Assembly (NCBI GenBank): GCA_011390345.1
Contig: JAABSP010000012.1
Span: 7,846-71,845, forward strand
Direction: 5' to 3'
DNA: 64,000 nucleotides
DNA from: Desulfobacteraceae bacterium
GTDB taxonomy: Bacteria > Desulfobacterota > Desulfobacteria > Desulfobacterales > JAABSP01
Program-made: the position numbers and the translations under genes
Shown: positions 726 through 25,354 of the stretch, piece by piece
Position numbering within the stretch: position 1 is the first letter of the stretch
Layout of the letters: every line of letters starts with the position of its first letter
The notes under the pieces: generated by a model
What the model was told of the DNA's origin: nothing
Database searches by the model: none
The model's input: only the letters and a program-made list of their open reading frames with translations

Positions 726-733
726 GAATATTT

Positions 734-2200: not shown

Positions 2201-2800
2201 TTACAATACCCCCTTGGAAGAGCGGACCCCGCTGATCCGCCGATCAAAGGAGACGGCCTCATCCAGAGCCCGTCCCGTGGCCTTGAAGATGGCCTCTATC
2301 ATATGGTGCTGGTTCTCACCGTACAGGAGCCGGATATGAAGATTCATCCCTCCCCGTACCGAAAATGCCCGAAAGAACTCCTTGGCCAGATGGATATCAA
2401 AGGGCCCCCCGGGATCTTTCGGCTCGGGAACCCCATATACCAGATAGGGGCGGCGGGAGAGATCCAGGGCCACATCCGCGAGGGACTCATCCATGGGAAC
2501 GATGGAATGGCCGTATCGGCGGATCGATTTCCGATCCCCCAGAGCCGCGTCGAATGCATCGCCCAGGGCAAGTCCTACATCCTCTACCGTATGGTGTCCG
2601 TCCACATGCAGATCCCCATCGGCCCGGACAGCGAGATCGAAGAGGCCGTGAACCGCAAAGAGTGTGAGCATATGGTCGAAAAACCCGATGCCGGTCCGGA
2701 TCTCATGGGTTCCGGAACCGTCGAGGTTCAGGCGGATGGAGATGTCGGTCTCGGCGGTTTTACTATGAATGGACGCGGTTCGATCCGCAGATGATCCCAT
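2201..2800 (-). CDS. hisB: imidazoleglycerol-phosphate dehydratase HisB
   Basis: ETDISIRLNLDGSG...GIGFFDHML...DLHVDGHHTVEDVGLALG...MNLHI...GENQHHMIEAIFKA are canonical IGPD motifs. Confidence 0.93.
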   Translation of the reverse strand: MGSSADRTASIHSKTAETDISIRLNLDGSGTHEIRTGIGFFDHMLTLFAVHGLFDLAVRADGDLHVDGHHTVEDVGLALGDAFDAALGDRKSIRRYGHSIVPMDESLADVALDLSRRPYLVYGVPEPKDPGGPFDIHLAKEFFRAFSVRGGMNLHIRLLYGENQHHMIEAIFKATGRALDEAVSFDRRISGVRSSKGVL

Positions 2801-2925
2801 AGAGATTCAGGTCCGCAGTGATAGAGGATGGGTTGAAGGTTGGTTCAAGGCGCTGTATGAAGGACACCGGAAATCGATGCTGGATGGTGGCATCAAATCT
2901 ATTTCGGTCTTGTTTCAAAATAAAA

Positions 2926-3001
2926 TGGTGGAGATGAGGGGATTCGAACCCCTGGCCTCAGCATTGCGAACGCTGCGCTCTCCCAACTGAGCTACATCCC
3001 C
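2926..3001 (-). tRNA. tRNA-Ala (anticodon CGC), CCA encoded
   Basis: The minus strand reads GGGGATGTAGCTCAGTTGGGAGAGCGCAGCGTTCGCAATGCTGAGGCCAGGGGTTCGAATCCCCTCATCTCCACCA. It folds as a cloverleaf with the G3:U70 alanine identity pair. The anticodon loop is TTCGCAA, giving anticodon CGC. The T-loop is GGTTCGAATCC. Confidence 0.9.
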
Positions 3002-3067
3002 ACAGTCAATTCAACTTTTATACAGATGAATTTTCCATCCGTCAATAAAAAACTTGTCTTATGCGCT

Positions 3068-3125
3068 AAAAAATGTTCAACTCTATCTTTTTTCTCTACA
3101 GCCCGGGTCCGGTTGAACATTTTTT
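3068..3125. promoter_or_regulatory. 14-bp perfect inverted repeat (AAAAAATGTTCAAC ... GTTGAACATTTTTT) with a 30-nt spacer, between tRNA-Ala and the YcaO-TPR gene
   Basis: The arms at 3068..3081 and 3112..3125 are exact reverse complements. The element lies in the divergent promoter region. Confidence 0.3.
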
Positions 3126-3151
3126 CGGGACACGGGTTTTCGGGACACGGG
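3122..3151 (+). promoter_or_regulatory. tandem 15-bp direct repeat (TTTTCGGGACACGGG x2) abutting a TATAAAAT -10-like box
   Basis: Two perfect copies lie at 3122..3136 and 3137..3151. They are followed by ccTATAAAAT (3154..3161), then GGAG and the ATG at 3180. There is no -35 match, so this looks like an activator-dependent promoter. Confidence 0.35.
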
Positions 3152-3179
3152 CCTATAAAATAGCGAGACGGAGATTTCC

Positions 3180-10726: not shown

Positions 10727-11110
10727 TCAAACCAGATGAACGTCATACTGCCTGATCAATTCATCATTCGTGATGATGATCATATTTTCAGCAACTGCCT
10801 GGGCGATCAGTATCCGATCAAAGGGGTCTTTATGATGCATGGGTAGTTTGAACACCGTCAGCGCATGTTCGGTTGTAATATCCAGAGACTGGATATCGTT
10901 CAAGACAAGTTGTTTCCGAACGAAGTCAACAACCGACTCCGGAAGGATCAATTTTCCGATCTGAGCTTTTATGGCCATTTCCCATGCGCTGGCGGCGCTC
11001 AAAAACAGGTTTTCGTCTGTTTCGCCCAGCAGCAGCCGGGTTTCTTTATCCAATTTCGGATTGTCCAGAACCCACCACAGGAAGATATGAGTATCCAAGA
11101 GATAGCTCAT
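10727..11110 (-). CDS. vapC: type II toxin VapC (PIN domain ribonuclease)
   Basis: YLLDTHIFLWW...SAASAWEMAIK...DPFDRILIAQA...IITND contains the PIN acidic residues. It overlaps the upstream antitoxin gene by 4 nt. Confidence 0.9.
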   Translation of the reverse strand: MSYLLDTHIFLWWVLDNPKLDKETRLLLGETDENLFLSAASAWEMAIKAQIGKLILPESVVDFVRKQLVLNDIQSLDITTEHALTVFKLPMHHKDPFDRILIAQAVAENMIIITNDELIRQYDVHLV

Positions 11111-11355
11111 TTATAGAATTCCGCCAGCATCTCATCATCCAGGGGCTCTTCAAAATCATCCGCCATCCAGATCATTCCCTTTGCTGAACCGGGCTTCCGC
11201 TTTTTCTTAACGCTTTTTTTCCTGTCTTCATCCGATTCGACCAAAACAATGATTTCAACGTCTTTTCCGATCATCGTTTTCGGTATCGGCAAATTCAGGA
11301 CTTCCGAATCAATATGTGCTTTGATTTTTAGCGCTTCCATATTAAAATTCTCCAA
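11107..11355 (-). CDS. type II antitoxin (DUF2281-like) paired with VapC
   Basis: 82 aa with the C-terminal motif WMADDFEEPLDDEMLAEFY typical of DUF2281 antitoxins. It is translationally coupled to vapC. GC content is locally lower. Confidence 0.7.
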   Translation of the reverse strand: MENFNMEALKIKAHIDSEVLNLPIPKTMIGKDVEIIVLVESDEDRKKSVKKKRKPGSAKGMIWMADDFEEPLDDEMLAEFYK

Positions 11356-11415: not shown

Positions 11416-12939
11416 TCAGAGGCCGATAAAAGAGCGCACCGTGATGATCGGCTTCCGCAGGATCTGCATTCCCAGGATGGTGGAATCGCCGTAGATCTTG
11501 GCAGATCCCTTCTGCCCCGGCTGCACTTCGGGCGGATCTCCCACCCAGACTGCCTCGGCCATCACCGACGGGATCTGATCTTCGGAAACCATAACATCGA
11601 AACCGAGACGGGTGATCACCGCGGGAATGGTCCGGAGCGGATCGCTGTCGAGCCGTACCCCCACCCGGGCCCCCTCCTTTAAAAAGCCGACATCACTGGC
11701 CGGGACCATGATCCGTACCTTGGTCTTATCCGGTTCCGCAACGCTCATAACAGCCTGTCCGGTCTGCAGGGCCGCGCCGATGATGGCATCGGGATCATCC
11801 AGTACGATGACCCCGGGATTTACGGTCTTTACCTCGGCCCGGGCCCGCTGACGGGCAAAAAACTCCACATCGGCCTCGGCCCGTTCCACTTCGAGCCGCT
11901 GGACCGGCAACTCTGCCCGGGCCTCCCGATCCCGATGCGCCGCACCCTCCAGTTTGGCCAGCTTTGCACGGGCAACCGCCACATTTCGATACGCCTCGTC
12001 CAGGCGCTTGTCCAACACCCGGGCATCATACCGGAAGAGCACGGTATCCTTTGCCACCCGCTGCCCCGGCTGCACCAGAAGCTCCTTCAGGATGCCGTCC
12101 ATGGGCGCGAAGATGTAATGGGGCCGATCCGGAACCGCGCGCAGAGGCGCGGTGACGCTGGAGGTGACCGGAAGCGCCAGCACCAGCAGCAGAACAAGGC
12201 CGGCCACAGATCGAATGATCCGCTTCCGGGAGCGGAGAGCCGCGCTTCTGGGCCGTGCCAATCCATGCCCCATGAAGAGCGCGGCATGGCGCAGCAGCTC
12301 CACATCGAGGCTGTCATCCCAGCGAAGCCCTCGCCATCGCTCCAGCCAGAGCGCATAAGCGGGCGGAATCTTTCCGTCCCTGTCGAGCCAGAGGGGAAGC
12401 CAGAGGATACCGGTCCCGCCCATGGCCGACTGAACTTTCTGGATCGGACCCTCCTGAGCCGGAGGGAGAATCATCGGCTCCTGCCGGTCTCCGTAGGCAT
12501 CCCGGGCCGCATCGATGGCATCGGCAAAACCACTGTCCTGAGCGGCCTGTCCCCCGCCTGTGACGGCCGCGATGGGCGACTTTCCGGAAAGGCGGACCAG
12601 CACGGCTCGATCGACCCGGGTGATCTCGGCCACCCGGTTGACCACAAGGGCCGCAGCCTCCTGAGGCATCGGCGCGGAGAGGATCGAGGTGCAGACCCTG
12701 AGAAAGCGCGCCAGCACCATATCACTGCCGGCGGGCCGGGCCCTGGGCGGCTGTTGCTGTTCCCCGCTGTTTCCGGCCCCGGGCGGCAGCGGCTGTTCTC
12801 CTCTGTTCCAGGCTCCCGTCGGCTGGGGCTTCGAAATCCCCTTTCCCGGGTCCTGCGGCTGTTCCGCGCCGTTCAGAGATCCATTCAGGTTCCGTGCCGC
12901 GCTCGAATCGAATCCGATTTTAGCCCCGGGTTTAGCCAT
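11416..12939 (-). CDS. HlyD-family membrane-fusion protein with ~230-aa cytoplasmic GAF-like N-terminal domain
   Basis: A Pro/Gln-rich disordered start is followed by a GAF-like block (LARFLRVCTSILSAPMPQEAAALVVNRVAEITRVDRAVLVRL...). A single TM follows (IIRSVAGLVLLLVLALPV). Next come lipoyl, coiled-coil and beta-barrel HlyD features (PMDGILKELLVQPGQRVAKDTVLFRYD...). The ATG overlaps the stop of the upstream HlyD gene. Confidence 0.8.
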   Translation of the reverse strand: MAKPGAKIGFDSSAARNLNGSLNGAEQPQDPGKGISKPQPTGAWNRGEQPLPPGAGNSGEQQQPPRARPAGSDMVLARFLRVCTSILSAPMPQEAAALVVNRVAEITRVDRAVLVRLSGKSPIAAVTGGGQAAQDSGFADAIDAARDAYGDRQEPMILPPAQEGPIQKVQSAMGGTGILWLPLWLDRDGKIPPAYALWLERWRGLRWDDSLDVELLRHAALFMGHGLARPRSAALRSRKRIIRSVAGLVLLLVLALPVTSSVTAPLRAVPDRPHYIFAPMDGILKELLVQPGQRVAKDTVLFRYDARVLDKRLDEAYRNVAVARAKLAKLEGAAHRDREARAELPVQRLEVERAEADVEFFARQRARAEVKTVNPGVIVLDDPDAIIGAALQTGQAVMSVAEPDKTKVRIMVPASDVGFLKEGARVGVRLDSDPLRTIPAVITRLGFDVMVSEDQIPSVMAEAVWVGDPPEVQPGQKGSAKIYGDSTILGMQILRKPIITVRSFIGL

Positions 12940-13726
12940 TGATCCGCACCTCCCCCTTCATCCCCGGCAGGAGTTCATTCCCCGGAGATTCCAGGGTCCA
13001 GATCACCTGAGCCGTATTGCTCAATTCATCCACTTCAGGGACCACCGCATCCACAATTCCGGCGATCGTCGCATCCAGATCATTGACATAGAAGCTGTGG
13101 CGATCCCCCTTTTTCAACTGCACCGCCAGCCAGGAGGGGATATTGCCCACTGCCCGAATCCGGGTCGGCGAGATGAGATCGACCACGGGCTGGCCAATGG
13201 TCACCCACTCATGGGGTTGAACATGACGCCGGACCACAACCCCGTCAAAGGGGGCATAGATCAACGAGTTCCCGATCTGGCGCTTTAAAATCTCGATATC
13301 GGTCCGCACCACATCCCGCTGCATCCGAACCTCAGCCAGATCCTCGTTGGTGGCAAGCCCCTTCTGATTTAGCCGCTCCAGATTGCTCACCTTCACATTG
13401 AGATGCCGCAGGGAGAGTTCGCTCCGCTTCTTCTGCAGCGCCAGCTCCCCGGTATCCACCTGCGCGATGAGGTTTCCCTTTTTAATCGGGCTTCCGGCCT
13501 CGTATTTCAGGCTGGTCAGCACCCCGGCCCGCTCCGCGGAGAGAACGGCCCGATCCAAGGCCTCGAAGATGACCGGAAAGGCATCCCCGCCAGAGGATGC
13601 CGAATAGCCCTCCTGAAAGACCCCTTCCGGAATATTCCCGGACTGTGCCAAGACCCTTTCCGGCATCATGCCGGCGCAAAGAGAAGCCGCCAGTCCCACC
13701 GCAACAACCGCGAGACAGAAGCGCAT
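12932..13726 (-). CDS. HlyD / RND-adaptor-type periplasmic membrane-fusion protein
   Basis: MRFCLAVVAVGLAASLCAGMM is a signal or anchor. Further features are ...GSPIKKGNLIAQVD..coiled coil..IYAPFDGVVVRRHVQPHEWVTIGQPVVDLI. I chose the start at 13726. The track start at 13867 overlaps the upstream gene by 115 nt. Confidence 0.8.
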   Translation of the reverse strand: MRFCLAVVAVGLAASLCAGMMPERVLAQSGNIPEGVFQEGYSASSGGDAFPVIFEALDRAVLSAERAGVLTSLKYEAGSPIKKGNLIAQVDTGELALQKKRSELSLRHLNVKVSNLERLNQKGLATNEDLAEVRMQRDVVRTDIEILKRQIGNSLIYAPFDGVVVRRHVQPHEWVTIGQPVVDLISPTRIRAVGNIPSWLAVQLKKGDRHSFYVNDLDATIAGIVDAVVPEVDELSNTAQVIWTLESPGNELLPGMKGEVRING

Positions 13727-13752
13727 CCATCCATATCCAACAATCCTGTCGA

Positions 13753-15960
13753 TCAAAACAGTCCTCTTTCCGTCAGATGTTTCCAAATAGTTTCGATGGC
13801 CCCTGTCAGAATGGGGCGGCTCTCCCGGGGGAGCCAGATCCAGCCGGGCATGCCGTGGGGCAGCCATTTGGGGCTCCGGTCCACCTCGAAAAGAAATGTG
13901 AAGTAGGCATCCTTGGGCCGAAGGCCCCGGGTGTCTGAAACGGAGATCATAGACCCGCCGGCCGCGTCGAGGAGGCTCTCATTGGGCAGATAATAGACCG
14001 GAAAGAGGCTTTTCTCCCGGAGCCGGCCGGTGATGGCCGGCGCCTTGGACGCGCCAAAGCGGATCTTTGCCGACTCCCCCACTGCCGCAGATACGCCCTG
14101 AACCAGCCGCTCGTGCACATAGGCCCGCACCTCCCGAACCTCCGGATCGGCAACGGTGAAAAGATAGGTTTCCCTGTTGACATAGGCGTTCTTGTAGAGA
14201 TCCGGGTTGACATCGGTGATGCGGCCATCTGCAGGCGAACGGATCTCCAGAAGGCTCTGGGCCTGGGTCAGCTTCTCCAGCACGGCCATCAGACGATTCT
14301 CCTCCTCCAGCAGCCAGTTCCGGTAGGCTCCCTGCTCTCCCCCGCCGCCAAGACTCTGGAGTGTGGCCCGCACCGAAGCCAGATCGAATCTCGCCCCCTC
14401 CACCTCATGGCGCAGGGTTCCGCTCTGAATCCGGATGATGAGGTCGCCTTTTCGCACCGACTTTCCCGGTTCCGGCAGCGACATAACGATCCTTCCGGCC
14501 GAGGGCGCATCGAGTCGGTTGGCGCCCTCGTAGAGGAGCAGGCTTGGCAGGTGAGTGTATCGGGGCAGCGGAATCAGAAGCAACAGGATCAGGGTCAGCA
14601 GAACTCCGCCTGTGATTGCTGCTCTTTTCCGGGAACCGATCTTTTTCCGCTCCCGCACCACCGATTTGATCTCGAAATAGAGTGGCCGGATAAAAAAGAT
14701 CCAGATCTCCACCCCCAGGATGAGAAGCCCCAGCGCGGGAAAGAAGAGATAATAGACCGCAATGGCGATGGCAAGGCCGATGAAGAGCCGATAGAGCAGC
14801 GCCAAAAACCCATAGAAGATCATCCAGTTCCGATTCGGATGGATCTCCGGGGCAGGTTCTTTCCATCCCAGCAGGCGCTGCCGGGTCCAGTGGCGCAGCA
14901 TGGCAAATGCCCGGGGTCTGAGATTGTCGATCCCCCATGCGTCCATGAGCAGATAATAGCCGTCGTAGCGCATGAACGGGTTGAGATTGATGAATACCGA
15001 TGAGACCAGGGAAGTGCCGGAGAGAAAGAACATGAGGCTTTTCAGGATGCCGTCCGGCAGCAGTGCCCAGTAGAGAAGCGCGAGCCCCGCGACCACCAGT
15101 TCGAAGAGTACCCCGGCAGCGCTGATCCACATCCGGCGTCTCCGGTCCGGGATCTTCCACGCATCGGTGGTGTCGGTGTAGAGCAGGGGCCAGAGTACGA
15201 TAAAGAAGATCCCCATGCTCGGCACATGGAGGCCCATTGCTTTTGCCGTATAGGCGTGCGCGAACTCGTGTCCGATCTTCAGGGTCACAAGGCAGAGAAT
15301 AAAGGCAAATGCGCCCTGTGGAGTGAAGAGGTAGTTGATGGTCCCCAGATAGAGTTCGATCTCCGGCAGGGTCAGGGCAAGGCCCAGTATTCCGCAGATC
15401 AGGTAGAACCATCGGGCCGCGGGGGACCAAAGGGGCTTCACCCAGGGAAGGGTCTTTGCGAGAAAGCGGTCTGGCCGGATAAGCGGAACCTGAAAGAAGA
15501 TGGTCCCCTGGAGGATCTTCCGCAGAAAAGGGGGCGCTGTCCCCTCCCCTGCCGACTCCCGCCTGACCGCCTCGTCCGGCGGTATCCGGGCAAGAGACTC
15601 CCGCTGCAGCATCCCGATGAAGGAGAGGATCTCCTGTGGAGTGGGCCGAAGACCCGTGGTGGTGTAGAGGTTGGCCGCGGCCTTGTCCAGATCCGGCTCC
15701 ACCGAGAGGCGGTAGATCAGCTCCCCCTCCACGAATCCCAGCCGGAAATTGTTCCCTCTCACCGGGTCTTCCAGCACCCAGGAGCGCTGGCCGTCATGTT
15801 CGATTGGGCCCGGGTGGAGGATCAGATCGGGCCGAAGCCCATACCACGGGGTTTTTAAAAAATCCTTTAAGCTGTTGCCGCCATTCTGATCCGGTTTCAG
15901 GTTCTGCTGCGAATCCGGGGCTGTATTGGCCGCATTCGGCTGTCGGTTCTGCTCTTCCAT
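13753..15960 (-). CDS. peptidase M50 (site-2-protease-like) membrane domain fused to a C-terminal HlyD-type membrane-fusion domain
   Basis: The HExxH motif sits in a TM helix (LKIGHEFAHAYTAKAMG) and multiple TM helices follow. The motif NLNPFMRYDGYYLLMD is also present. The C-terminal ~270 aa are HlyD-like (GDLIIRIQS..., coiled coil, ...IRSPADGRITDVN...). The N-terminal ~190 aa are soluble. Confidence 0.85.
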   Translation of the reverse strand: MEEQNRQPNAANTAPDSQQNLKPDQNGGNSLKDFLKTPWYGLRPDLILHPGPIEHDGQRSWVLEDPVRGNNFRLGFVEGELIYRLSVEPDLDKAAANLYTTTGLRPTPQEILSFIGMLQRESLARIPPDEAVRRESAGEGTAPPFLRKILQGTIFFQVPLIRPDRFLAKTLPWVKPLWSPAARWFYLICGILGLALTLPEIELYLGTINYLFTPQGAFAFILCLVTLKIGHEFAHAYTAKAMGLHVPSMGIFFIVLWPLLYTDTTDAWKIPDRRRRMWISAAGVLFELVVAGLALLYWALLPDGILKSLMFFLSGTSLVSSVFINLNPFMRYDGYYLLMDAWGIDNLRPRAFAMLRHWTRQRLLGWKEPAPEIHPNRNWMIFYGFLALLYRLFIGLAIAIAVYYLFFPALGLLILGVEIWIFFIRPLYFEIKSVVRERKKIGSRKRAAITGGVLLTLILLLLIPLPRYTHLPSLLLYEGANRLDAPSAGRIVMSLPEPGKSVRKGDLIIRIQSGTLRHEVEGARFDLASVRATLQSLGGGGEQGAYRNWLLEEENRLMAVLEKLTQAQSLLEIRSPADGRITDVNPDLYKNAYVNRETYLFTVADPEVREVRAYVHERLVQGVSAAVGESAKIRFGASKAPAITGRLREKSLFPVYYLPNESLLDAAGGSMISVSDTRGLRPKDAYFTFLFEVDRSPKWLPHGMPGWIWLPRESRPILTGAIETIWKHLTERGLF

Positions 15961-15964
15961 ATCT

Positions 15965-16000
15965 TTAAAAAAGGCTGAACCGCTGAGTTCAGCGGTTCAG
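15965..16000 (-). terminator. intrinsic-terminator-like hairpin between giant cargo gene and M50-HlyD gene
   Basis: Perfect 12-bp inverted repeat CTGAACCGCTGA/TCAGCGGTTCAG (15975..16000) with 2 central nt. On the minus strand it is followed by CCTTTTTTAAAGAT and then the ATG at 15960. Confidence 0.55.
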
Positions 16001-16077
16001 TCATATCATCATTTTTCAGGGTAAAGGGTACTGGGAGATCAGGAGTCGATTCCAACTGCCCGTTCGATCATTGGGCA

Positions 16078-19000
16078 TCAGCAATCAGAGGGATCTCCGC
16101 CGTCCGGTCTCCAGCGGCCCGGGCGCTTATCGGCCTGGTCCGGGCTCAGAAAGACCTCCGCAAAACCGCCGGGGCCCACATCATTGAAGCCCTGGGCTCC
16201 CTGCATGGAGAGCTGGGAATAGACATCATGCTCCTCATCCCGGTTATGCTTGGCAAACGCCTCTTCCTCGGCAGCGCCGAAGGCTTCGGCAAATTCACCG
16301 GGCCGGTGACAGAAGCCCGGGTCTCCCTCCTCCCGCATAAAGAGCTGGTGGAAGAGATCGAACTCAGTGAAGCAGAAGGGCTCGATTTTGGAGACAAAAG
16401 GATCATCCCATCCAAGAGTTCCCTCGAGGTAATCCCAGGTGATGTTGCAGAGCCTTGCCTCGGGATCATAGGCCGGAGCAAGGCGGCATCCGATCTTCAG
16501 GGCCTCTTCCAGGGTGCAGCACTCGTAGAGCTGCTCGTTGCCGCAGGGACCTGCCATCAGAGCGCGGAAGACCTCCATCGGGCCGCCGGTATCGAGTACA
16601 TCGCCGGGGAAGGGGATTGCGCCGAGTTCCAGCCCCTGGAGGCCGCTGTAGCCGGGGCGGGCGATGGGCTCCAGCATCAGTTCCTGAGCCGGAGGTCCTT
16701 CATAGGGAGGTCTTGCCGGAGGACGATTGCCCACAAACAACGTAATAGTATCGGTGTCGGTCATGGGGCCGCCCTCGCCGGTATGGCCCAAATCATTGGT
16801 CGTCATCGTCAAATGGGCTTCTCCGCGGAAGGCCTCACCAGGATTGTACCGCACCTGGGCAAGGGCTTCGTTGATCTCCGGAACCGTTCCCTCGATCACT
16901 ACCTGTGCGGTCCCGTTCCCGGTCACCGTGACCGCCTCTGTATCATTCACCGTGACGCTGCTGTTATCTGCGGTCAGCGTAACCCGAATGTCATCATAGA
17001 CCACATTTCCGGCATCATTATAATGGTAGGCGTCCACATCCTTAACAGATATCCGGTTCCCATTGGCATCGCTAAAGACGACTGTCGCATCCTGCGGGGT
17101 GATGAGGGTATCCGGAAAATCAGCGGTACCGGAATAGAGGTTGATGGGCGCGTCATTGACCGGCGTCACCCGGATGATCCCGTCGCCGGTTTCGCTTGTG
17201 GAGCCGCGGTCATCGGTAATCTGTATCGTGTAGTTCCGATTTGCGGGATTGGGGTTCTCAGACGGATTGAAGAAGCGGACGCTTTCCACTGCAGATTCGT
17301 AATTGGCCACCGAATCCACCCCTGTAAAGTTGAGGATTCCGGCGCTCTCATCATAGGATACGGTGATCCCCGTACCGGCAATGGTCATTCCGTCCGTTAT
17401 GGGGCTGTCTCCGATCCGCAAATCGTCGTTCGGCTTGAGGTCCGTGAAATGGATGGAGAGAGAGGAAAGATTCTCGCTGTCCGGATCATTGATGGAAAAG
17501 TCGTCCTCCACAATGGAAATCGGTGCATCGCCCTCCCGGAATTCCACTTCGGCCGGGCCCGGCCGTTCCGGAGGCTGGTTGCGGTCAATATCAATGGTCA
17601 TCTGATAGTCCGACTCGCTCAGCTTCGGCTCAACGGCCTGCGGCGCATGGGCGGCGTCGTCCTGAACCTTGAATCGGAAGGTATCATAGTTATCCGCAAA
17701 GAAGATATCCTCACTCATGGTATAGACCAACTGGCCGTTCCGGATGGCATCGGTGGAAATCAGGGTATCTGCCGTCACCGTTTCACCGTTGAGGGTAAGC
17801 GTACCCTGATCCGGAAGATCGGTGATCTGAACAGCCTTGAAGTTGTCCCCTTCCATGTCATCGAATTCGAAATCGCCCATATTGAAGGTATAGGTCATAT
17901 CCTCAGTCACGCTCACCTCTCCGTCCGCACTGGTGGGAGGGTCGTTGACCGGCGTTACGATGATCGGCATCAGATAGGCGTCTGCGCTGTATTTGACTCC
18001 GTTATTGACCCGGAACTGAAAATCGGCATATTCGAACTCGTTTATAGGATGGTTTCCATCGCCGTAAGCATCCGCATTCGGTTTAAACTTCAGTTGACCA
18101 TTTTCAATCTGCTCCCGGGAGATTTTGTCAAAGAGATTGACATCCTCGCCGTTGAGCAGCAGGGTTCCGGCCGAAGCGGTCTTAGTGATCCAGAGTTCCT
18201 GGAGATCATTGCCATCGAAATCCTTATATTTGAAATCATCCAGCTTGAAGGTGTATTCGGTATCCTCCTCGATTGAGACCGGGTCCGCAGGCCCCTGAGG
18301 CCGCTGGTTCACCGGGGCCACATCGATGGTCATGGTGTAGTCCGAATGGCTGTATTCAGTGCCGTCATGGACTTCAAACCGAAAGCTCGAATAATCATCT
18401 CCATGCTCATATTCAACCGGAATAAAGACCAGATCACCGTCCATGATATCCTCTGCCGAGATCTCGGTTCCTTCGGTGACCGCGACGCCGTTCAGCAGCA
18501 GAGAAGCACCATCTTTAATGGACAGATCGGTGATCTGCACCTTGGCCATGCTGTCTGTGAGATCCACATCGTTGAAGATGAAATCCTGCAGTTGGAAACG
18601 ATATCCAGGATCGAAGGTCTCCGGATCGACCTCCAGTGCGGTGACGGTGTTGTCGATGGAGGTCGGGGCATCCTGCACCGGAGTCACATCCATGGTCATG
18701 GTGTTGCCGTTGAGGCTGTATGCGGTCCCGTCATGGACTTTAAAGCGGAAGGTCGCGTAATCATCGCCGTAGGCATCCTTGTTCGGAACAAAAACCAGAT
18801 CCCCCTCGTCGATGGCCGCGATGTCAATCTCCTGATTGAGGGCCACCTCCTGGCCATCGAGCAGCAGCTCCCCTGCGGTCTCGAGCTGTGTGATCCTGAT
18901 CTGGGTGAAGGTTCCACCGTCCGGATCACTGAAGCCGAAATCCTCCCGGGTAAAGATATGCTGTGTATCCTCAGCAATGACCACGGTCTCGTTAGTTCCC

Positions 19001-20673
19001 GAAGGGGGGATGTTGCCCACGGTCACATTGATATTCATATTGTATGCGGACTGGCTGTAGGCCGTGCCGTCGGAAACCTGGAATCCAAAATTGGCATATC
19101 CATTGCCGCTGGCATCGGAGGCCGGGGCAAAGAGCAGATTTCCGGCTTCGATCTGATCGACATCGATCTCCTGGTTGAGGGAAACGGCCTGGCCGTTGAG
19201 CAACAGATCTCCCGCTGCCTCCAGCCGGGTGATCTTCACGGTCTGAAAGGAATCCCCCTCATCCACATCGTTGAAGGAGAAGTCGGAGATCTTGAAAGTA
19301 TAATCGGTGTTCTGGCCTGTGGTTACGGTGTTGTCCGCAGAGGTGGGCGGATCATTGACCGGTGTGACATTCATCACCAGGGTATAAGCCGACTGGCTGA
19401 AGGACGTTCCGTCGCTGACCTTGAACCGGAAATTGGAATATGCCGCGCCGTTGGCGTCCGCATCCGGAACAAAGATGAATTCTCCGGCCTCGATCTGAGC
19501 CCGGGTGATCTGCTCGTTGACATTCACCTCACGGCCATTGAGCATCAGGGTACCGGCCGTCTCCAACTGGTTGATCTGAACAGACTGCAGGCTGTCTCCG
19601 GTATCCGGGTCGGTGAACCCGAAGTCGTCCACCTTGAAGGTGTAGGGGGTATCCTCCTGCAGGGTGACGGCCTGATCCGATGCCTTGGGCAGATCGTTGA
19701 CCGGATTGACATCCACCGTCATACGATAGGCATCGGCACTGAATTCCTTACCATCGGAAACCTTGAAGCCGAAGCCGGAATACCCCGCGCCGTTTGCATC
19801 CGTTGCCGGAACAAAGATCAGCCGCCGGGCCACGATATCCTCCACCGCAATCACATCGCCGGCCCCGACGGCCTCTCCGTTGAACTGCAGCGTACCCGCA
19901 GGATCGATATCGGTAATTTGGACCGCCTGCAGCGTATCGCCGCTGTTTACATCCACATCATTGAAGAGAAAATCGTTCCGCTCAAAGACGTAGCTGGTAT
20001 CCTCGTCAGTCACTACGGTATTGTCCAGCGCTGTGGGGGCATCCTGGACCGGCGTCACATCGATGACCATGTTTGCAGCCGTAACGCTGTATGCCGTGCC
20101 ATCATGCACCTTGAACCGAAAGTCGGAATAAGGGCTTCCATTTGCATTTTGATTGGGCACGAAGGTGAGATTCCCGGCCTGGATATCCGTGGCCGAAATC
20201 TCATCATAGAGCCCTACCTCCTGCCCGTTGAGCAGAAGGGAACCGGCCGACTCCAGCTTGGTGATCTGGATCTTGAGGAGAGGGTCGCCTTCCGGATCGG
20301 TGTAGGCACTCTCGAAATCGGCAAGGCTGAATGTATGAGTCCCATCCTCGCTCATTGTAACCGTTCCATCCCCAGTACTCGGAGCCGCTCTCATCACCGG
20401 GCCGTCCGCAGCCTCGGGCCCATCCGCAGGGAGGTCGCCATCTGCCGAAACCCCGTCAGAGATCTGGGTGTCCGGATCGCTCAGCAGTGCGGCCGCACCG
20501 GCCGCGGCATCTGCGGAAAATGAAATGTGCTCCGCGCCTGCCATGTTATCCGGGACCGCAGACCCGTCCGGAACCTGTGCGTCATCATGATCATCGACCG
20601 CATGATCGATCACATGTGCCACAGCAGCTCCGTCGAGGACGATCCTGCGTTCCAGTTTCATCAGGTTCAACAT
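16078..20673 (-). CDS. 1531-aa acidic secreted repeat protein (cadherin-like/Ig-like tandem repeats; N-terminal LEPR-XLL-like motif; Cys-rich C-terminal domain)
   Basis: A strong RBS, AAGGGAGGTGA, precedes the ATG. The N-terminus is MLNLMKLERRIVLDGAAV. Eight repeats of about 113-122 aa are each closed by a V(T/N)PV(N/Q)DxP junction. Each carries the pattern xEDTxYTFxxxDFxFxDxDxGDxLxxVQITxLxxxGxLxLNG...F.P..N..G...F.FKV.DG. Two divergent modules and a 155-aa tail with 8 Cys follow. Confidence 0.9.
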   Translation of the reverse strand: MLNLMKLERRIVLDGAAVAHVIDHAVDDHDDAQVPDGSAVPDNMAGAEHISFSADAAAGAAALLSDPDTQISDGVSADGDLPADGPEAADGPVMRAAPSTGDGTVTMSEDGTHTFSLADFESAYTDPEGDPLLKIQITKLESAGSLLLNGQEVGLYDEISATDIQAGNLTFVPNQNANGSPYSDFRFKVHDGTAYSVTAANMVIDVTPVQDAPTALDNTVVTDEDTSYVFERNDFLFNDVDVNSGDTLQAVQITDIDPAGTLQFNGEAVGAGDVIAVEDIVARRLIFVPATDANGAGYSGFGFKVSDGKEFSADAYRMTVDVNPVNDLPKASDQAVTLQEDTPYTFKVDDFGFTDPDTGDSLQSVQINQLETAGTLMLNGREVNVNEQITRAQIEAGEFIFVPDADANGAAYSNFRFKVSDGTSFSQSAYTLVMNVTPVNDPPTSADNTVTTGQNTDYTFKISDFSFNDVDEGDSFQTVKITRLEAAGDLLLNGQAVSLNQEIDVDQIEAGNLLFAPASDASGNGYANFGFQVSDGTAYSQSAYNMNINVTVGNIPPSGTNETVVIAEDTQHIFTREDFGFSDPDGGTFTQIRITQLETAGELLLDGQEVALNQEIDIAAIDEGDLVFVPNKDAYGDDYATFRFKVHDGTAYSLNGNTMTMDVTPVQDAPTSIDNTVTALEVDPETFDPGYRFQLQDFIFNDVDLTDSMAKVQITDLSIKDGASLLLNGVAVTEGTEISAEDIMDGDLVFIPVEYEHGDDYSSFRFEVHDGTEYSHSDYTMTIDVAPVNQRPQGPADPVSIEEDTEYTFKLDDFKYKDFDGNDLQELWITKTASAGTLLLNGEDVNLFDKISREQIENGQLKFKPNADAYGDGNHPINEFEYADFQFRVNNGVKYSADAYLMPIIVTPVNDPPTSADGEVSVTEDMTYTFNMGDFEFDDMEGDNFKAVQITDLPDQGTLTLNGETVTADTLISTDAIRNGQLVYTMSEDIFFADNYDTFRFKVQDDAAHAPQAVEPKLSESDYQMTIDIDRNQPPERPGPAEVEFREGDAPISIVEDDFSINDPDSENLSSLSIHFTDLKPNDDLRIGDSPITDGMTIAGTGITVSYDESAGILNFTGVDSVANYESAVESVRFFNPSENPNPANRNYTIQITDDRGSTSETGDGIIRVTPVNDAPINLYSGTADFPDTLITPQDATVVFSDANGNRISVKDVDAYHYNDAGNVVYDDIRVTLTADNSSVTVNDTEAVTVTGNGTAQVVIEGTVPEINEALAQVRYNPGEAFRGEAHLTMTTNDLGHTGEGGPMTDTDTITLFVGNRPPARPPYEGPPAQELMLEPIARPGYSGLQGLELGAIPFPGDVLDTGGPMEVFRALMAGPCGNEQLYECCTLEEALKIGCRLAPAYDPEARLCNITWDYLEGTLGWDDPFVSKIEPFCFTEFDLFHQLFMREEGDPGFCHRPGEFAEAFGAAEEEAFAKHNRDEEHDVYSQLSMQGAQGFNDVGPGGFAEVFLSPDQADKRPGRWRPDGGDPSDC
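17575..20373 (-). repeat. eight in-frame tandem coding repeats (~340-366 nt each) inside the giant gene
   Basis: The protein junction motifs fall at about aa 211, 327, 441, 556, 669, 791, 911 and 1033, counted by hand from the track translation. Confidence 0.8.
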
Positions 20674-20755
20674 ATGTCACCTCCCTTTATCGGTGTTTCG
20701 ATAATATGGATGTTCTTTGTTTCGTTCAAACAGATACTGTTTTTTTGTGCAACGA

Positions 20756-22831
20756 TTACCAGTGATTACTCGTCGGCGGGATCACCCAGTACTCCATCCC
20801 GTTTTGTTTCAGATTCTGGGCAAGCTGCTTGGCTTCGGGCTCAGTCAATCCCATCAACCGCACCCGGTTGTAGAGCTTTCCGTTGAGGTTTTTGGTGCTG
20901 ACCCGGGCATCCCGGTTATCTGCCAGCCGCAGTTCCAGATCCTTGATCTGGTCGATCCGCTTGGCCGGCCCTCCGGCCTTGGTGAAAGAGCCCATCTGCA
21001 CCTTCCAGAGAAAACGGTCAGATGCTGCGTTGGACCAACCCCTGGAGGCCGAATAGTCATCTTCGTAGGTTGAAGTATCTGACCAGGGATCGACCGCTCC
21101 GCCGGTTCCGCCCGCTACTCCCCCTGTTCCACCCACCCCTCCGCCGGCAGGGGGTACTGTCCCGGCTCCGGCATCGGTGAAGCCCGCATCTTCGGCCGGA
21201 TATCCGCTTCCGCTGCCATAGGGAGAAGCGCCGCCCAGATCCATGGTGTCGATCTCCGAACCCGAACCGGCTGCGTAATTATCCGCGGCCATATTTGCCA
21301 GCTCTCCGGAGGCGAGGTCATACCCGACGCCTGAAACATCGCCGCTGCCCAGCAGAATGCTCGTGTCGCAGTCCTGGGGAAACATGCCGATGCTGACACA
21401 GAGACGTTTGTGCGCCACCATCATATCGACAACAGCCTCGTCCCTTCTCAGCTTTGCCGCCATCTCCTCCAGATAGCGCTGGGTGACGGCCAGCTCCGGC
21501 AGGCGGCCGGCACTGTTTTTGGCCTTGGCCATATCCAGAAGATTCTCGGCAAGCTGAAAGGTCTCTTCCAGCAGCCGGAACCGGTCCACCTTGATGGCAT
21601 AATCGAGAAGCGAGATATGCACCTGGGTGATGACGCCGACGGTCATCATCAGCCGCTCCACCTCTGCCATATTGACAGTCTTTTTCGTTCCCTGCAGCCT
21701 GGCAATGTTCGAGGGAAGGTCGAGAAGATTCCAGCTCACCCCCGCACCGACGCTGTTCCAGGTGTTGGCATAGAGGAGCCGGTTGTCATCATAATGGGAG
21801 GCCGCAAAGAAGTTGAGTCCCGGAAAGAGGTTCAAAATGGCCGCCTTGGTCTCCTCTTTCTGGATCAGGACCTGGATGTCACGCTGATAGAGTTCGGGGC
21901 GATGCACCAGGGCATACTCCTCCAGAGAGTCGATATCCAGTTCCTTGGTATGGGGAAGCGCCGCGACAATGGGCTTGATGGGCGGTCTGGCCAGGGTGTA
22001 CTGGACGTTCTGATTGAAGCCCATGAGCTGGGAGAGTTCCAGACGGGCCGAGGAGAGATTGGCCTGGAGTTGCCGGACCGTCAGTTCCAGCTCCTTGAGC
22101 CGGAGTTCGGCCTCGGCCGCATCCATCCGGTCCAGATCTCCAGAGGCCACCGCGCTGTCGATCCGACCTTTGACGATCTTCAGCCGTTTCTCCACCGAAT
22201 GGACATAGTCGAGGGCATCTTCCAGAGCTGCGGCCTGCCAGTAGGCCCCCACGATATCCAGAGCCAACTGCTGGGCCTGCCGGACCCGCTTCTGCTCCAG
22301 AAACTGCTCCCGCATCTCCGAGGCGCCGGAGCGGACATACGCGAGCGCTGTGTCCAGCACGTTCCAAGTGAGGGTCAGGTTGGCCCGGAAGGAATCCTTC
22401 AGCTCCGAAACCGTATAATCCTTCTGATCCTGGTCCAGCCGCCAGTTGTAGACATCGCTCTTCCGGAGCTTGTCCCGATACTCGAACCTGGCATCCGCGA
22501 CCAGACCGGGCAGCATCTGAAGCCGTTTGGCCAGGGTCTCCTTGTCCGCGATCTCCTCATCGAGCTTGGCAATGCGGACTTCCAGGTTATTGCGCAGTCC
22601 GATGCTGATGACATCCTCCAAGGTCAGGGGCTGCTCGAAATTGATATCCATCGGGGGCTTGAGCAGCTCCAGATCGGTCTTAGCCTGCTGCTCCCGTTGA
22701 TCCGCCATTTCGGCATCATTGAGAATCTTGGTGCATCCACCGATAAAAAGGAATATGAATGCGACCCAGAAAAACTTCGTCAATGCTGACCATGACGTGC
22801 TCCTGCCGGAACCCTTTCTCATCTCTAACAT
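20756..22831 (-). CDS. TolC/NodT-type outer-membrane factor lipoprotein fused to a C-terminal SPOR domain
   Basis: The lipobox is FLFIGGC. A two-repeat OEP/TolC-like coiled-coil body occupies about aa 60-500. A Gly-rich linker follows (GGGVGGTGGVAGGTGG). The SPOR-like end is FLWKVQMGSFTKAGGPAKRIDQIKDL...YNRVRLMGLTEPEAKQLAQNLKQNGMEYWV. Confidence 0.85.
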   Translation of the reverse strand: MLEMRKGSGRSTSWSALTKFFWVAFIFLFIGGCTKILNDAEMADQREQQAKTDLELLKPPMDINFEQPLTLEDVISIGLRNNLEVRIAKLDEEIADKETLAKRLQMLPGLVADARFEYRDKLRKSDVYNWRLDQDQKDYTVSELKDSFRANLTLTWNVLDTALAYVRSGASEMREQFLEQKRVRQAQQLALDIVGAYWQAAALEDALDYVHSVEKRLKIVKGRIDSAVASGDLDRMDAAEAELRLKELELTVRQLQANLSSARLELSQLMGFNQNVQYTLARPPIKPIVAALPHTKELDIDSLEEYALVHRPELYQRDIQVLIQKEETKAAILNLFPGLNFFAASHYDDNRLLYANTWNSVGAGVSWNLLDLPSNIARLQGTKKTVNMAEVERLMMTVGVITQVHISLLDYAIKVDRFRLLEETFQLAENLLDMAKAKNSAGRLPELAVTQRYLEEMAAKLRRDEAVVDMMVAHKRLCVSIGMFPQDCDTSILLGSGDVSGVGYDLASGELANMAADNYAAGSGSEIDTMDLGGASPYGSGSGYPAEDAGFTDAGAGTVPPAGGGVGGTGGVAGGTGGAVDPWSDTSTYEDDYSASRGWSNAASDRFLWKVQMGSFTKAGGPAKRIDQIKDLELRLADNRDARVSTKNLNGKLYNRVRLMGLTEPEAKQLAQNLKQNGMEYWVIPPTSNHW

Positions 22832-22953: not shown

Positions 22954-24534
22954 CTAATAAATTCCCCAAGAACCCTTCAAATAGTATCTGTACAACACCG
23001 GACGGCTTCTGGAATTGGTCTCAATCCCTGCCATCCTCTCCTCTTCGAGTACGCCCCTTCCAAAATGGAGCATGGAGACAACCGCATCGGTGTTGAGAAA
23101 ACGAGTATCAATGCCATCAAAATCGATGGCCAGCATCAATGATTTCAATCGAGCTTCATCCATTTCCGTCTCAGGAACCCCCAATGCCCACCCCCATTCT
23201 CCAAGGGTGGGAATGGAATTGTGATAGGGGAGGACAGAAAAACCAGCGGCCCGCACCGTTTTGACGATGCACTGAAAGGCCATCCGGGCAAAATAGGGGC
23301 TTGCGGCCTGGGTGACGAAGACCCCGCCGCGGATAAGACGGCTCTTTGCATTGCCGTAGAAATCAACCGAATAGACATGCATCAGATCCACACTGTCCGG
23401 GTCCGGCAGATCCGCAATGATGACGCCGTAGTGGGAATCATCCTTCTGCAAAAATCCGGCCGCATCCATATTGATTATGGTTACCCGGTCGTCGAGCATG
23501 GAATATCGGTTGACCGAAAGCAGCATGGGATGGGTCTGCCCCAACTGGGTCATCTCCGGGTCGAGATCCACCAGCGTCACGGATTGCACATCCTTATACT
23601 TGAGGACCTCCCGAAGCGCGAGACCGTCTCCGCCGCCCAGGATCAGCACCCGGCTCCGGTCTGGCGTGAGCATCATGGCCGGATGAACCAGGGGCTCGTG
23701 ATACCGCTCCTCGTCAACGGTGGAGAACTGCTCCTGACCGTTGAGATAGAGCCAGTAGTCGTTCTTCCAACGGGTCATGACAATCTTCTGGTAGGGCGTC
23801 TGCGCGGAGAAGATCACTTTGTCCGCATACCGGCGCTGCTCCGCGTAGGTGATCACCGGATTGGCAAAGAAACCGAGCATCAGCAGAAGACAGAAGACCC
23901 CGGCAAATGCGCTCACCAGAAGCCGTTTCCGCTCTAAAAGATCATAGAATCGCCAGAGGATCAGCCCGGCCACCAGAAAGTTGATGCTCCCCAGAACGAT
24001 AGGCGTATAGGTCAGGCCGAGATAGGGCAGCGCAAAAAAGGCGAAGATAATCCCGCCAAAGAGCGCGCCGTAATAATCCTTCTCCATCACCCCCGAGATG
24101 TTGATCCGAAGCTCCTCATATGCGTCGTTCATCCGGGTGACCAGAGGGATCTCCAGGCCGATGAGGCTTCCGATGACCATTGCCTGCACATAGATGATCC
24201 ACTGGAAGCATTCGAAAAATCCAGCCAGGCTGTAGGCGAGGATTGCACTGAGCGCACAGAGCACCGACAGGGTGAACTCGGTCATCACGAATGCATCCAG
24301 CAGGTTTTTGCGGAAAAAGCGGCTCAACCGGCTGCCGACGCCCATTGCAAACAGCATCAGCGACATCATCACGGTCCACTGAAAGATGGCGTTCCCCAAC
24401 AGATATGTGGCCAGGGTAGAGAGAACGAACTCGGCCACGATTCCGGCACAGCCGGTGGCAAAGAGCGCGGCCTTTAAAATCAGGCCGAAAGAGCGGTCTT
24501 CAGACACACCAGTAGACGACAAATCCGGCCGCAA
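22954..24534 (-). CDS. speE: polyamine aminopropyltransferase (spermidine synthase-like) with N-terminal multi-TM domain
   Basis: About 200 aa of TM helices are followed by the PABS/SAM fold (RVLILGGGDGLALREVLKY...VTLVDLDPEM...DLPDP). The start may instead be the GTG at 24507. Confidence 0.85.
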   Translation of the reverse strand: MRPDLSSTGVSEDRSFGLILKAALFATGCAGIVAEFVLSTLATYLLGNAIFQWTVMMSLMLFAMGVGSRLSRFFRKNLLDAFVMTEFTLSVLCALSAILAYSLAGFFECFQWIIYVQAMVIGSLIGLEIPLVTRMNDAYEELRINISGVMEKDYYGALFGGIIFAFFALPYLGLTYTPIVLGSINFLVAGLILWRFYDLLERKRLLVSAFAGVFCLLLMLGFFANPVITYAEQRRYADKVIFSAQTPYQKIVMTRWKNDYWLYLNGQEQFSTVDEERYHEPLVHPAMMLTPDRSRVLILGGGDGLALREVLKYKDVQSVTLVDLDPEMTQLGQTHPMLLSVNRYSMLDDRVTIINMDAAGFLQKDDSHYGVIIADLPDPDSVDLMHVYSVDFYGNAKSRLIRGGVFVTQAASPYFARMAFQCIVKTVRAAGFSVLPYHNSIPTLGEWGWALGVPETEMDEARLKSLMLAIDFDGIDTRFLNTDAVVSMLHFGRGVLEEERMAGIETNSRSRPVLYRYYLKGSWGIY

Positions 24535-25354
24535 TGTAGGAAAAGGCTTCGATAAAGGCCGCGCCGATGTTGGGCTTCTCCTGGCCGTGTGCGATGATCT
24601 CGTGGGTCAGCTTCACCGAGGGCAGAAGGATCTTGTCGGTGAGAAACCGGATGGCCGGCAGCAGCAGGATGCCCAGCACCGCCACAAAGGCATAATTGGG
24701 CAGATCCGTATCCCAGGCATGAAAGTCCCGCTCGGCCGCAAGCCCCACCACGATACCGATGCCGATGAGCGCGCCGCCGAAGCTCACCCCGGCCGCGACA
24801 TTGTCCTTTTCGATCTCGTCATGGACATCAAAGGGGAGCACTTTGGCATAGACCGCACCGGCGATCATCAGGATCAACTGGCCCAGCCCCCAGAAGGCGA
24901 TCGCGGTCCAGATGCTCCCCCCCTCGCCCGATACCGAGCCGAAGATGATCAGCCCTGTGGCCACGCTCATTCCCAACGAAACCGCGCCGGTACCGCAGTT
25001 CTGATCCCGGATCAGTTCATCGCTGATCTTGAATCGGGGCAGCATCACCTTGTCGCAGAGGATCCAGGAGACATTGAGAAGAAGGATGCCCAGTAGACCG
25101 TAGATTCCGATATCGATGAGATCGATGATGATCCCGTGGCTCGGCCCTACGATCGCGCCGCCGATAGAGAATACCAAGCCGAAATAGTAGCCCATCAGCG
25201 CCACCGCGACGGCCGGGTTGTCCTTCTCTACCAGTTCATGGGTCAGGTTGTAATCCCGATGGATCAGGCCGTAGATCAGCTTCCCCAGAAAGAAGAGAAC
25301 ATAAAAAATGACGATATAGATGAGCGCAGTGACGAGTCTGTCGAGAATCTCCAT
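24500..25354 (-). CDS. DUF350 repeat integral membrane protein (YjfL-like)
   Basis: Several repeats of the DUF350 pattern are present (N.A.A....G...G....I). The protein is all-helical and membrane-embedded. The gene abuts its neighbours on both sides. Confidence 0.7.
   Translation of the reverse strand: MEILDRLVTALIYIVIFYVLFFLGKLIYGLIHRDYNLTHELVEKDNPAVAVALMGYYFGLVFSIGGAIVGPSHGIIIDLIDIGIYGLLGILLLNVSWILCDKVMLPRFKISDELIRDQNCGTGAVSLGMSVATGLIIFGSVSGEGGSIWTAIAFWGLGQLILMIAGAVYAKVLPFDVHDEIEKDNVAAGVSFGGALIGIGIVVGLAAERDFHAWDTDLPNYAFVAVLGILLLPAIRFLTDKILLPSVKLTHEIIAHGQEKPNIGAAFIEAFSYIAAGFVVYWCV

Follow-up and report, generated by a model that had tools for sequence, protein, structure and literature searches.

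How might a very large, acidic repeat protein leave the cell when the genes packed around it encode an outer-membrane duct and adaptors, and no pump? This question is raised by a locus of a Desulfobacteraceae bacterium (contig JAABSP010000012.1) that falls, within Desulfobacterales, in the Desulfonema/Desulfococcaceae neighbourhood, and from which a stretch of 64 kb, hereafter the window, was analysed computationally. Five tightly packed minus-strand open reading frames (ORFs) were called at 11416-22831, all of them where an original prediction had drawn a five-gene block. They encode a TolC-like outer-membrane factor (OMF) lipoprotein, a giant protein that we call the cargo, and three periplasmic adaptors, one of them fused to an M50 membrane protease and another to a GAF-like domain. 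Judging from their sequences, these genes probably constitute a dedicated envelope-spanning export machine, similar to a type I secretion system (T1SS) but free of an ATP-binding cassette (ABC) transporter, together with its giant surface protein. The locus would then be a SecA-less variant of a predicted and uncharacterised T1SS-like system, with a cargo and a signal now proposed.

On the minus strand the OMF gene (20756..22831; 691 aa) comes first, and the cargo gene (16078..20673; 1531 aa) follows after 82 nt. A further 117 nt separate the cargo gene from that of the M50 fusion (13753..15960; 735 aa). The short adaptor gene (12932..13756) has two candidate starts, an ATG at 13726 giving 264 aa and a TTG at 13756 giving 274 aa, the latter being the choice of the source gene caller and overlapping the stop codon of the fusion gene; the HlyD adaptor placed earlier at 12932-13726 keeps its identity, with an ambiguous start codon. 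The ATG of the last gene, for the GAF-like adaptor with its transmembrane helix (11416..12939; 507 aa), overlaps the stop codon of the short adaptor gene by 8 nt.

Profile hidden Markov model (HMM) searches of each protein confirmed every part of the system. The OMF matches Pfam OEP in two stretches (130 bits, E=1.1e-37) and carries a lipobox-like FIGGC and a Gly/Ser-rich linker, as befits the outer-membrane-factor lipoprotein for which it had been taken; its C-terminal SPOR match (17.2 bits) lies below the cut-off of 21, and its score against TIGR01844 lies far below the cut-off. The short adaptor, whose only anchor is a single N-terminal transmembrane segment, matches TIGR01730 (RND_mfp) at 127.5 bits (cut-off 94.9) as well as HlyD_3 and HlyD_D23. 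The last two are also found in the third adaptor, in which ~240 cytoplasmic residues precede a single transmembrane helix (residues 241-259). The GAF-like domain in this cytoplasmic part (residues ~73-228; 12256..12723) is backed at the level of the family: seven of 16 family members match Pfam GAF (best E=1.2e-4), the window protein itself gives no match, and a profile of the region returns GAF proteins as its top PDB matches, namely 4mcw (E=0.0027) followed by 6bhn and 1ykd. The adaptor half of the earlier GAF-like::HlyD assignment therefore stands for the window protein, and the GAF half for its family.

The fusion of an M50 protease to an adaptor is also borne out, since Peptidase_M50 scores 36.0 bits (cut-off 27.2), HlyD_3 is found in the same protein and the HEFAH sequence lies inside a predicted transmembrane helix (residues 214-241). 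Among NCBIfam models the best match is daptide_HExxH (NF041824) at 157 bits, below its cut-off of 300, and the epipeptide protease model NF058609 gives 22 bits, below its cut-off of 225. Residues H231, E232 and H235 (HExxH) and N325, P328 and D333-G334 (NxxPxxxxDG) are invariant in 52 sequences. Three charged residues within the predicted membrane helices, K228, E287 and E430, are also invariant, with R391 nearly so; these could form a proton path or have a structural role. An AlphaFold2 (AF2) model of the whole fusion, with a predicted local distance difference test (pLDDT) of 87.8 and a predicted TM-score of 0.72, consists of a small N-terminal domain, ~7 transmembrane helices with a beta-hairpin of the site-2-protease type (the polytopic M50 domain, residues ~155-465; 14566..15498) and a full periplasmic adaptor domain (13753..14565) with an alpha-hairpin at residues 514-569. 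The odd number of helices would place the N-terminal domain in the cytoplasm and the adaptor domain in the periplasm. In Foldseek searches the adaptor part matches TMexC, MacA, MexA, AcrA and ZneB (E=1e-13 to 1e-11 over ~280 columns). The top 50 matches of the full-length fold are adaptor structures only, so the M50 assignment rests on profiles and motifs.

The small N-terminal domain (residues 36-140; 15541..15855) is, on its predicted fold, likely to be a PqqD-like leader-binding domain of the kind called a RiPP recognition element (RRE), RiPPs being ribosomally synthesised and post-translationally modified peptides. Modelled alone (AF2 pLDDT 91.9) it has a core of three strands and three helices plus a fourth helix. 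The top Foldseek matches in the PDB are TbiB1 and TfuB1 (probability 0.99-1.0, target-normalised TM-score 0.63-0.73), which are leader-recognition proteins of lasso peptides whose structures were solved with leader peptides; the next unrelated match has a probability of 0.18 or less. A sequence profile of the domain also ranks TfuB1 (6jx3_B) first among 177,635 PDB sequences, with E=0.51. The original prediction had supposed that the fusion recognises the cargo's leader, perhaps cleaves it and takes part in its export; the RRE-like fold supports the recognition, and cleavage and export are inferred.

A fold of this kind could also point to a different cargo, a small leader-bearing peptide such as a RiPP or bacteriocin, with the giant as a mere neighbour or co-factor of the module. 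The nearest curated M50 families are likewise RiPP enzymes, and one relative of the fusion carries a precomputed PqqD match (PF05402). Against this, no small ORF is conserved with the module, nor is any RiPP tailoring enzyme across the loci described below, and the sole conserved leader-like sequence in 1.5 Mb of these loci sits on giants. We give a peptide cargo only the slimmest of chances.

The giant cargo that we favour is built of cadherin-like and tandem-95 repeats (Pfam Cadherin_4 seven times, Big_9 and Ig_SibA; NCBIfam tand_rpt_95 at 133 bits) and is acidic, with an isoelectric point of 4.05 and 273 Asp and Glu vs 78 Lys and Arg residues. Its eight cysteines all fall within the last 155 aa. 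No GGxGxD motif occurs in the 1531 aa, so that an RTX-type cargo was rejected, and no segment is hydrophobic enough for a Sec signal or a transmembrane helix. A Sec or Tat signal was rejected because there is no hydrophobic core and because the twin arginine of the window leader is not conserved in the family, other members having P, Q or S at the second motif position. The lack of RTX nonapeptides and of a Sec or Tat signal, both claimed previously, is thereby upheld.

At its extreme N-terminus the cargo carries the leader MLNLMKLERRIVLDGAAVAHVIDHA (20599..20673), which appears to be a divergent signal of the LEPR-XLL type, its motif beginning at residue 7. The start of the protein is fixed, since an in-frame stop sits two codons upstream of the ATG. 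On the 24-position NCBIfam LEPR-XLL model (NF012209) the window leader MLNLMKLERRIVLDGAAV scores 12.0 bits, below the cut-off of 17, whereas cargo leaders at the same position in the operons of Nitrospira (17.4 bits), Pelagibacter (21.0 bits) and Thermohalobaculum (19.2 bits) pass it. The window leader would therefore be a clade-specific variant of the same signal, and the variant is common to L001 and L008-L010. The resemblance first noted is below threshold for the window and above it for relatives whose cargo gene holds the corresponding place in the operon. The consensus LLALE[PQS]R[IL][MVL]FD[GA]A[AG][VA]AT was derived from 107 different N-termini, the LEPR-XLL-type consensus being given as LLALEPRIMFDGAAVAT. 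The leader spans ~20 residues, has invariant E, R and D and no hydrophobic core, and is also conserved at positions outside the search pattern, for example T at +13 in 81% of the 107 N-termini. Cargo starts were placed by upstream in-frame stops and the nearest start codon, a cross-phylum mapping of Shine-Dalgarno sites having given an unclear result; the motif always lies shortly after an upstream in-frame stop (median 47 codons), with a candidate start codon a median of 5 codons before it. In most cargos the leader is followed by an acidic linker and then by DUF4347. This domain is absent from the window cargo and from those of L010, L011 and L026, which makes the leader the universal element.

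To what extent are this machine and such cargos found together elsewhere? Relatives of the fusion occur in at least 595 species-representative genomes, and the family comprises 2916 clusters at 50% identity (E<=1e-30), of which the best 150 are all ~700 aa long and align from about residue 40, within the RRE-like domain, onward. For gene neighbourhoods we assembled 80 genome loci and five contexts from exact protein look-up, called their ORFs and classed these by phmmer against the window proteins and E. coli AcrB, MacB, EmrB, AcrA, MacA and EmrA. Seven high-GC loci were left out of the counts, as spurious antisense ORFs outcompeted the real ones in simple ORF calling, and the counts refer to the 79 loci in which the fusion was called. 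A GAF-type adaptor accompanies it in 67 of these, the short adaptor in 60, an OMF in 57 and all of them in 48, usually in the order OMF, short adaptor, GAF-type adaptor and M50 fusion. The hosts belong to Desulfobacterales, Nitrospira, Alpha-, Beta-, Gamma- and Zetaproteobacteria, Pelagibacteraceae, Magnetococcus and Planctomycetes.

A very large ORF, of about 1,000 to 4,900+ aa, nearly always adjoins the module. In 58 of the 79 loci an ORF of this kind beside the machine either bears the leader or is truncated at its 5' end, and the others are mostly short contigs or misses of the search pattern (for example HEKRIVLDGG in L003). When the six-frame translations of 1.54 Mb of loci were searched with a loose regular expression for the leader, there were 46 matches, all at the N-termini of the neighbouring giants and none elsewhere. 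The pairing was also approached from the other side, by a scan of metagenomes seeded only with N-termini made of the leader and DUF4347. Of the 80 loci returned, 62 contained the leader, 45 at least one module gene and 28 the M50 fusion; of the 40 that were 10 kb or longer, 27 had module genes. These counts are lower bounds, because the views are truncated and a gene of 10 kb may hide a module on its far side. The adjacency of machine and giant is thus frequent, not obligatory. The expectation that M50::HlyD fusions should be accompanied by LEPR-XLL giants and by TolC-like genes, but not by ABC or resistance-nodulation-division (RND) genes, holds in both directions of search, and the association with leader-bearing giants, whose absence would have told against it, is overwhelming.

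This two-way coupling also bears on a simpler reading of the module, as a small-molecule efflux pump or a signalling device working by regulated intramembrane proteolysis, with a leader that just tethers the giant to the membrane. The adaptors do resemble those of drug and metal pumps, and M50 proteases classically act in signalling. Against it stand the lack of a transporter partner, the strict two-way genomic coupling to leader-bearing giants and the fusion of a predicted RRE-like leader-binding domain to the protease. We consider this reading highly improbable.

If the module exports the giants, an energiser should be looked for. No ABC, RND or major facilitator superfamily (MFS) exporter and no SecA-like gene was found anywhere in the window, where ABC genes are limited to an Opp-type importer system at 27.5-32.2 kb; in the block itself, phmmer searches with AcrB, EmrB and MacB gave no match. 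The absence of such an energiser in or beside the block, as first described, is confirmed across the 64 kb. In the 79 loci an ABC-, RND- or MFS-like gene lies within 10 kb in nine cases, and in the 80 cargo-seeded loci in six, never at a fixed position, which for the 79 loci we judge to be no more than chance for such common genes. An adjacent pump, lost or displaced in the window, is therefore not the norm for this gene set.

It could nevertheless be argued that the giant is an ordinary type I substrate, exported C-terminus first by a distal ABC transporter, and that the M50, adaptor and GAF module is a device for retention, release or regulation at its N-terminus, in the manner of LapD and LapG acting on LapA. 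The cargos do have conserved C-terminal elements. In 9 of 43 cargos a [GP][FL]x[EDQ]QL motif is found 25-36 aa before the C-terminus, vs 0.004 expected per 110 aa, and there are clade-specific C-terminal domains: cargos of the window clade (L001, L008, L009 and L010 besides the window, 16078-16400) share a Cys-rich domain of ~200 aa with GFN[DE] ~35 aa from the end, and those of the Nitrospira type end in two hydrophobic helices, then PAWRxFDPLPVL and then a basic cluster. The GAF domain suggests inside-out regulation, the Nitrospira-type loci carry GGDEF/EAL regulators, and the authors of a preprint on Chlorochromatium favour a C-first, T1SS-like export (bioRxiv 10.64898/2026.03.19.712371). 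On the other hand, adaptors almost always adjoin their inner-membrane partner, and ABC-like genes are near so few of the loci; the cargo has no RTX repeats; three adaptors and an OMF far exceed the needs of a release protease; and the ATPase that is inserted in sister operons, described next, is SecA-like and not of the ABC type. Export by a distal ABC transporter thus seems unlikely to us.

The machine genes had in fact been reported before. Kamneva, Poudel and Ward described in 2015 a truncated secondary SecA_DEAD protein with three HlyD proteins, one with a weak M50 match and one with GAF, and sometimes an OEP protein; in their proposal the ATPase was the SecA-like protein and the pore was formed by the M50 domain, while the biological role was said to be completely unknown and no substrate, leader or RRE was named (PMC4452313). 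The system is consequently not undescribed with regard to its machine genes, as had been supposed; its role and cargo were left unnamed in that study. In the literature searched we found no other description of the system and no export route assigned to LEPR-XLL leaders. As far as that search goes, the LEPR-XLL/DUF4347 giants as cargo, the RRE-like leader reader and the common SecA-less variant are new.

Is the variant in the window related to the one with SecA? Neither the window nor any of the 79 close loci yielded a relative in a phmmer search with E. coli SecA; the sole match was in L121, from the cargo-seeded set, where a 692-aa SecA_DEAD/PP_bind/P-loop protein is accompanied by a pair of OEP genes, a pair of adaptors and a DUF4347 giant. 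The variant reported in 2015 is thereby confirmed next to a tagged giant. Relatives of this protein are ~630-680 aa long. The operons of L172 and L173 contain OEP, SecA-like, short adaptor, long adaptor and M50 fusion genes, with a 4911-aa DUF4347 protein encoded upstream in L172, and in L174, where the view shows no OEP gene, a SecA-like gene is followed by the gene for a long adaptor and by a split M50 gene. Proteins of these loci match the HMMs of the window families (M50 fusion, E=1e-112 to 1e-114; GAF adaptor, E=1e-37 to 1e-41), and the alignment of their M50 proteins with those of the window family starts at the RRE-like domain, so that this domain is present in the SecA-associated variants too. 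Since the SecA-bearing and SecA-less loci share the module, we regard them as two variants of one system, the window belonging to the one without an operon-encoded ATPase. The truncated SecA-like ATPase is a plausible energiser of the sister variants. Circumstantial backing for a SecA-linked export of giants comes from the LEPRxLL giants of Chlorochromatium, which are reported to be exported to the partner cell, are said to be without known transport signals and share one co-expression cluster with a horizontally acquired secA (bioRxiv 10.64898/2026.03.19.712371). Conserved Nitrospira neighbours of 616-640 aa were considered as further SecA candidates and rejected, being radical-SAM/B12 proteins, PAS histidine kinases and a flavoprotein.

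The SecA-like proteins invite another explanation, in which export proceeds in two steps. The leader would be an unusual signal for SecYEG working with either SecA or the SecA-like paralogue; the M50 fusion would be a leader peptidase only, and the adaptors and the OMF would take the protein across the outer membrane. Sister operons do encode a truncated SecA with a preprotein-binding domain, SecA's N-first movement agrees with an N-terminal signal, and systems of the MacAB-TolC type can take periplasmic substrates. The leader, however, lacks a hydrophobic core, and its E, R and D are invariant. In the SecA-like proteins the match to E. coli SecA ends at residue ~648 and there is no Pfam wing or scaffold domain; they therefore appear to be without the two-helix finger that inserts into SecY. 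Moreover, with an RRE-like domain and an M50 active site on the cytoplasmic side, the leader would be cut before or during entry into the membrane. For these reasons we think a two-step route quite unlikely.

The direct export that we favour can be pictured as follows. Immediately after its synthesis the leader would be bound by the RRE-like domain in the cytoplasm, and the chain would enter at the M50 membrane domain with its N-terminus first. The M50 site would clip the leader, probably near the small residues of the D-G/A-A-A stretch, as site-2 proteases prefer small residues. The unfolded acidic chain would leave via the duct of adaptors and OMF and fold outside on binding Ca2+, with the GAF domain gating export. 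SecA-type motors move chains N-terminus first, which is the direction assumed here. As the window's clade is without a SecA-like gene in the operon, the motor would have to act in trans, as a distal SecA paralogue or the housekeeping SecA, or else be replaced by translation, proton-motive force or an external folding ratchet. A precedent for cleavage coupled to export, as proposed for the M50 domain, is the M50 enzyme EpeP, which is thought to cleave and export its peptide (PMC10885120). Extended to all of the loci, the reading is of a distinct and widespread pathway in which a LEPR-XLL leader is read by an RRE and removed by an M50 protease and the nascent chain is threaded N-first, perhaps during its translation, through three types of adaptor into a TolC-like duct, with no ABC transporter, a truncated SecA motor in some lineages and no dedicated ATPase in that of the window. 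This wider reading we offer tentatively, at somewhat less than an even chance.

Several points weigh against these proposals. The motor is the weakest step. For the window's clade the analysis revealed neither a channel that would conduct protein nor a source of energy. None of the five operon proteins has a Walker A motif, and no M50 protease is known to conduct long polypeptides. The E-values of the RRE-like domain are marginal (0.046 by Foldseek, 0.51 by profile), and Pfam PqqD finds no match in the window domain and matches one of 28 family members (E=0.022). The score of the window leader lies below the cut-off of its model, and the conserved C-terminal elements of the cargos could be an anchor, or the true or a second signal. 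In 13 of the 40 long cargo-seeded loci no module gene is in view. Finally, the hairpin between the cargo and M50 genes, described below, could uncouple their expression.

The expression signals of the operon are as follows, all on the minus strand. The spacer between the OMF and cargo genes holds a promoter-like site, TTGAAC-17-TATTAT (20701..20729; 9/12 matches in a consensus scan), which is weak evidence because promoter-like sites are no more numerous in the region than in shuffled sequence. The very strong ribosome-binding site ascribed to the cargo gene is seen as the Shine-Dalgarno sequence GGGAGGTGA (20677..20685), which ends 3 nt upstream of the ATG. The hairpin predicted downstream of the cargo gene is found at 16000-15965 (15965..16000), between the cargo stop and the M50 start; it resembles a terminator or attenuator, its 11 bp (7 of them GC) standing ahead of a T-run.

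Directly downstream of the operon lies a PIN-domain/DUF2281 pair resembling a toxin-antitoxin system (10727-11355, minus strand). Immediately upstream are genes for DUF350 and a membrane-fused polyamine aminopropyltransferase (22954-25354, minus strand), whose order is the same in Desulfonema ishimotonii (L001), so that synteny around the operon is conserved. The remainder of the window consists of housekeeping and miscellaneous genes. These include two YcaO-domain proteins, one fused to TPR repeats (3180-4925, plus strand) and one at 52580-54337 (plus strand); a DUF6079/AAA_16 protein of 1251 aa, a protein of 1605 aa in which a DSHCT helicase-type domain is fused to an M1 aminopeptidase, and a Uma2-family nuclease gene at 38861-48675; and a type II/IV secretion-family ATPase (T2SSE) with N-terminal GAF and MshEN domains (61710-63980, minus strand).

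Further observations were made at the related loci. In L007 an AT-rich insertion of small genes (1-3100) lies upstream of the M50 fusion and includes a duplicated fragment of the N-terminus of the fusion itself; it looks like a rearrangement that parted the machine from its OMF and cargo. The small ORFs upstream of the M50 gene in this locus were considered as precursor peptides and rejected, being part of the insertion. Genes for PAS sensor histidine kinases lie 3' of the cargo gene in Nitrospira-type loci (L034, L043, L089 and L110) and in L172, joined by a response-regulator-GGDEF-EAL gene in L089, a hybrid kinase in L043 and a GerE-type regulator in L172; such neighbours suggest two-component and possibly cyclic di-GMP control. 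Complete cargos with conserved C-terminal elements include those of L014, L034, L040, L072, L081, L135 and L168. In the DUF4347 domains of cargo relatives (L001, L003, L014, L072 and others) an "SHG" histidine and a "YGC" cysteine are near-invariant and look, from sequence, like a catalytic dyad of the caspase/CHAT type. For DUF4347 a single structure has been solved, 9qpe chain G, in work on the loading of type VI secretion system effectors into Hcp rings, and the putative type VI effector PA0256 of P. aeruginosa is a DUF4347 protein.

What would follow if leader and machine do belong together? LEPR-XLL leaders mark many of the largest bacterial proteins, of thousands to tens of thousands of residues. 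An orphan signal would gain a machine and an orphan machine, predicted in 2015, would gain a cargo, and the repertoire of envelope-spanning systems would gain one whose inner-membrane part is a protease and not a pump. There would also be a rationale for the export of huge proteins, to which an N-terminal signal is suited because it allows the chain to start leaving while it is still being translated. Groups of central ecological importance, namely SAR11, Nitrospira, sulfate reducers and rhizobia, have the system, as do cultured, genetically tractable hosts.

Among known systems, the module of Kamneva and colleagues is like the one in the window in its M50-bearing, plain and GAF-bearing adaptor proteins, its OEP gene and the absence, noted there as well, of an ABC transporter. 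It differs in being anchored on a truncated SecA-like ATPase, of which there is none in the window or the 79 close loci. The T1SSs of giant adhesins (HlyBD-TolC; LapBCE with LapA, LapD and LapG) also have an OMF, an adaptor and a huge, acidic, repetitive surface protein of the Ca type without a Sec signal, and their machine genes are likewise clustered with the substrate gene. In contrast, the system described here has no ABC transporter or RTX repeats, its proposed signal is N-terminal and not C-terminal, its adaptors are three paralogues and its only polytopic inner-membrane part is the M50 protease. Measured against a T1SS, the locus has a TolC-family OMF and HlyD-family adaptors (three) and no cognate HlyB-type ABC transporter; measured against tripartite efflux, it has no RND, MFS, ABC or PET transporter beside an adaptor.

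Peptidase-containing ABC transporters such as CvaAB-TolC and PCAT1 share with it an N-terminal leader ending in a pair of small residues, a fused protease, an adaptor and TolC. They use a C39 cysteine protease and an ABC pump, whereas the system here would use an RRE and an M50 protease without a nucleotide-binding domain, and their cargo is a peptide where that of the present loci has about 1,000 to 4,900+ aa. The M50 proteases of RiPP pathways (EpeP/YydH, the daptide protease and TglG) and the RRE proteins TbiB1 and TfuB1 resemble the fusion in that daptide_HExxH is its best match and in the RRE fold; they differ in that its scores stay below the family cut-offs and in its fusion to an adaptor, its OMF operon and its giant substrate. 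SpoIVFB, finally, is an M50 protease that clips the short N-terminal pro-sequence of a non-membrane protein, pro-sigma-K, from the cytoplasmic face, much as proposed here for the leader of the giants, but it does so for signalling and not for export, and without adaptor or OMF partners.

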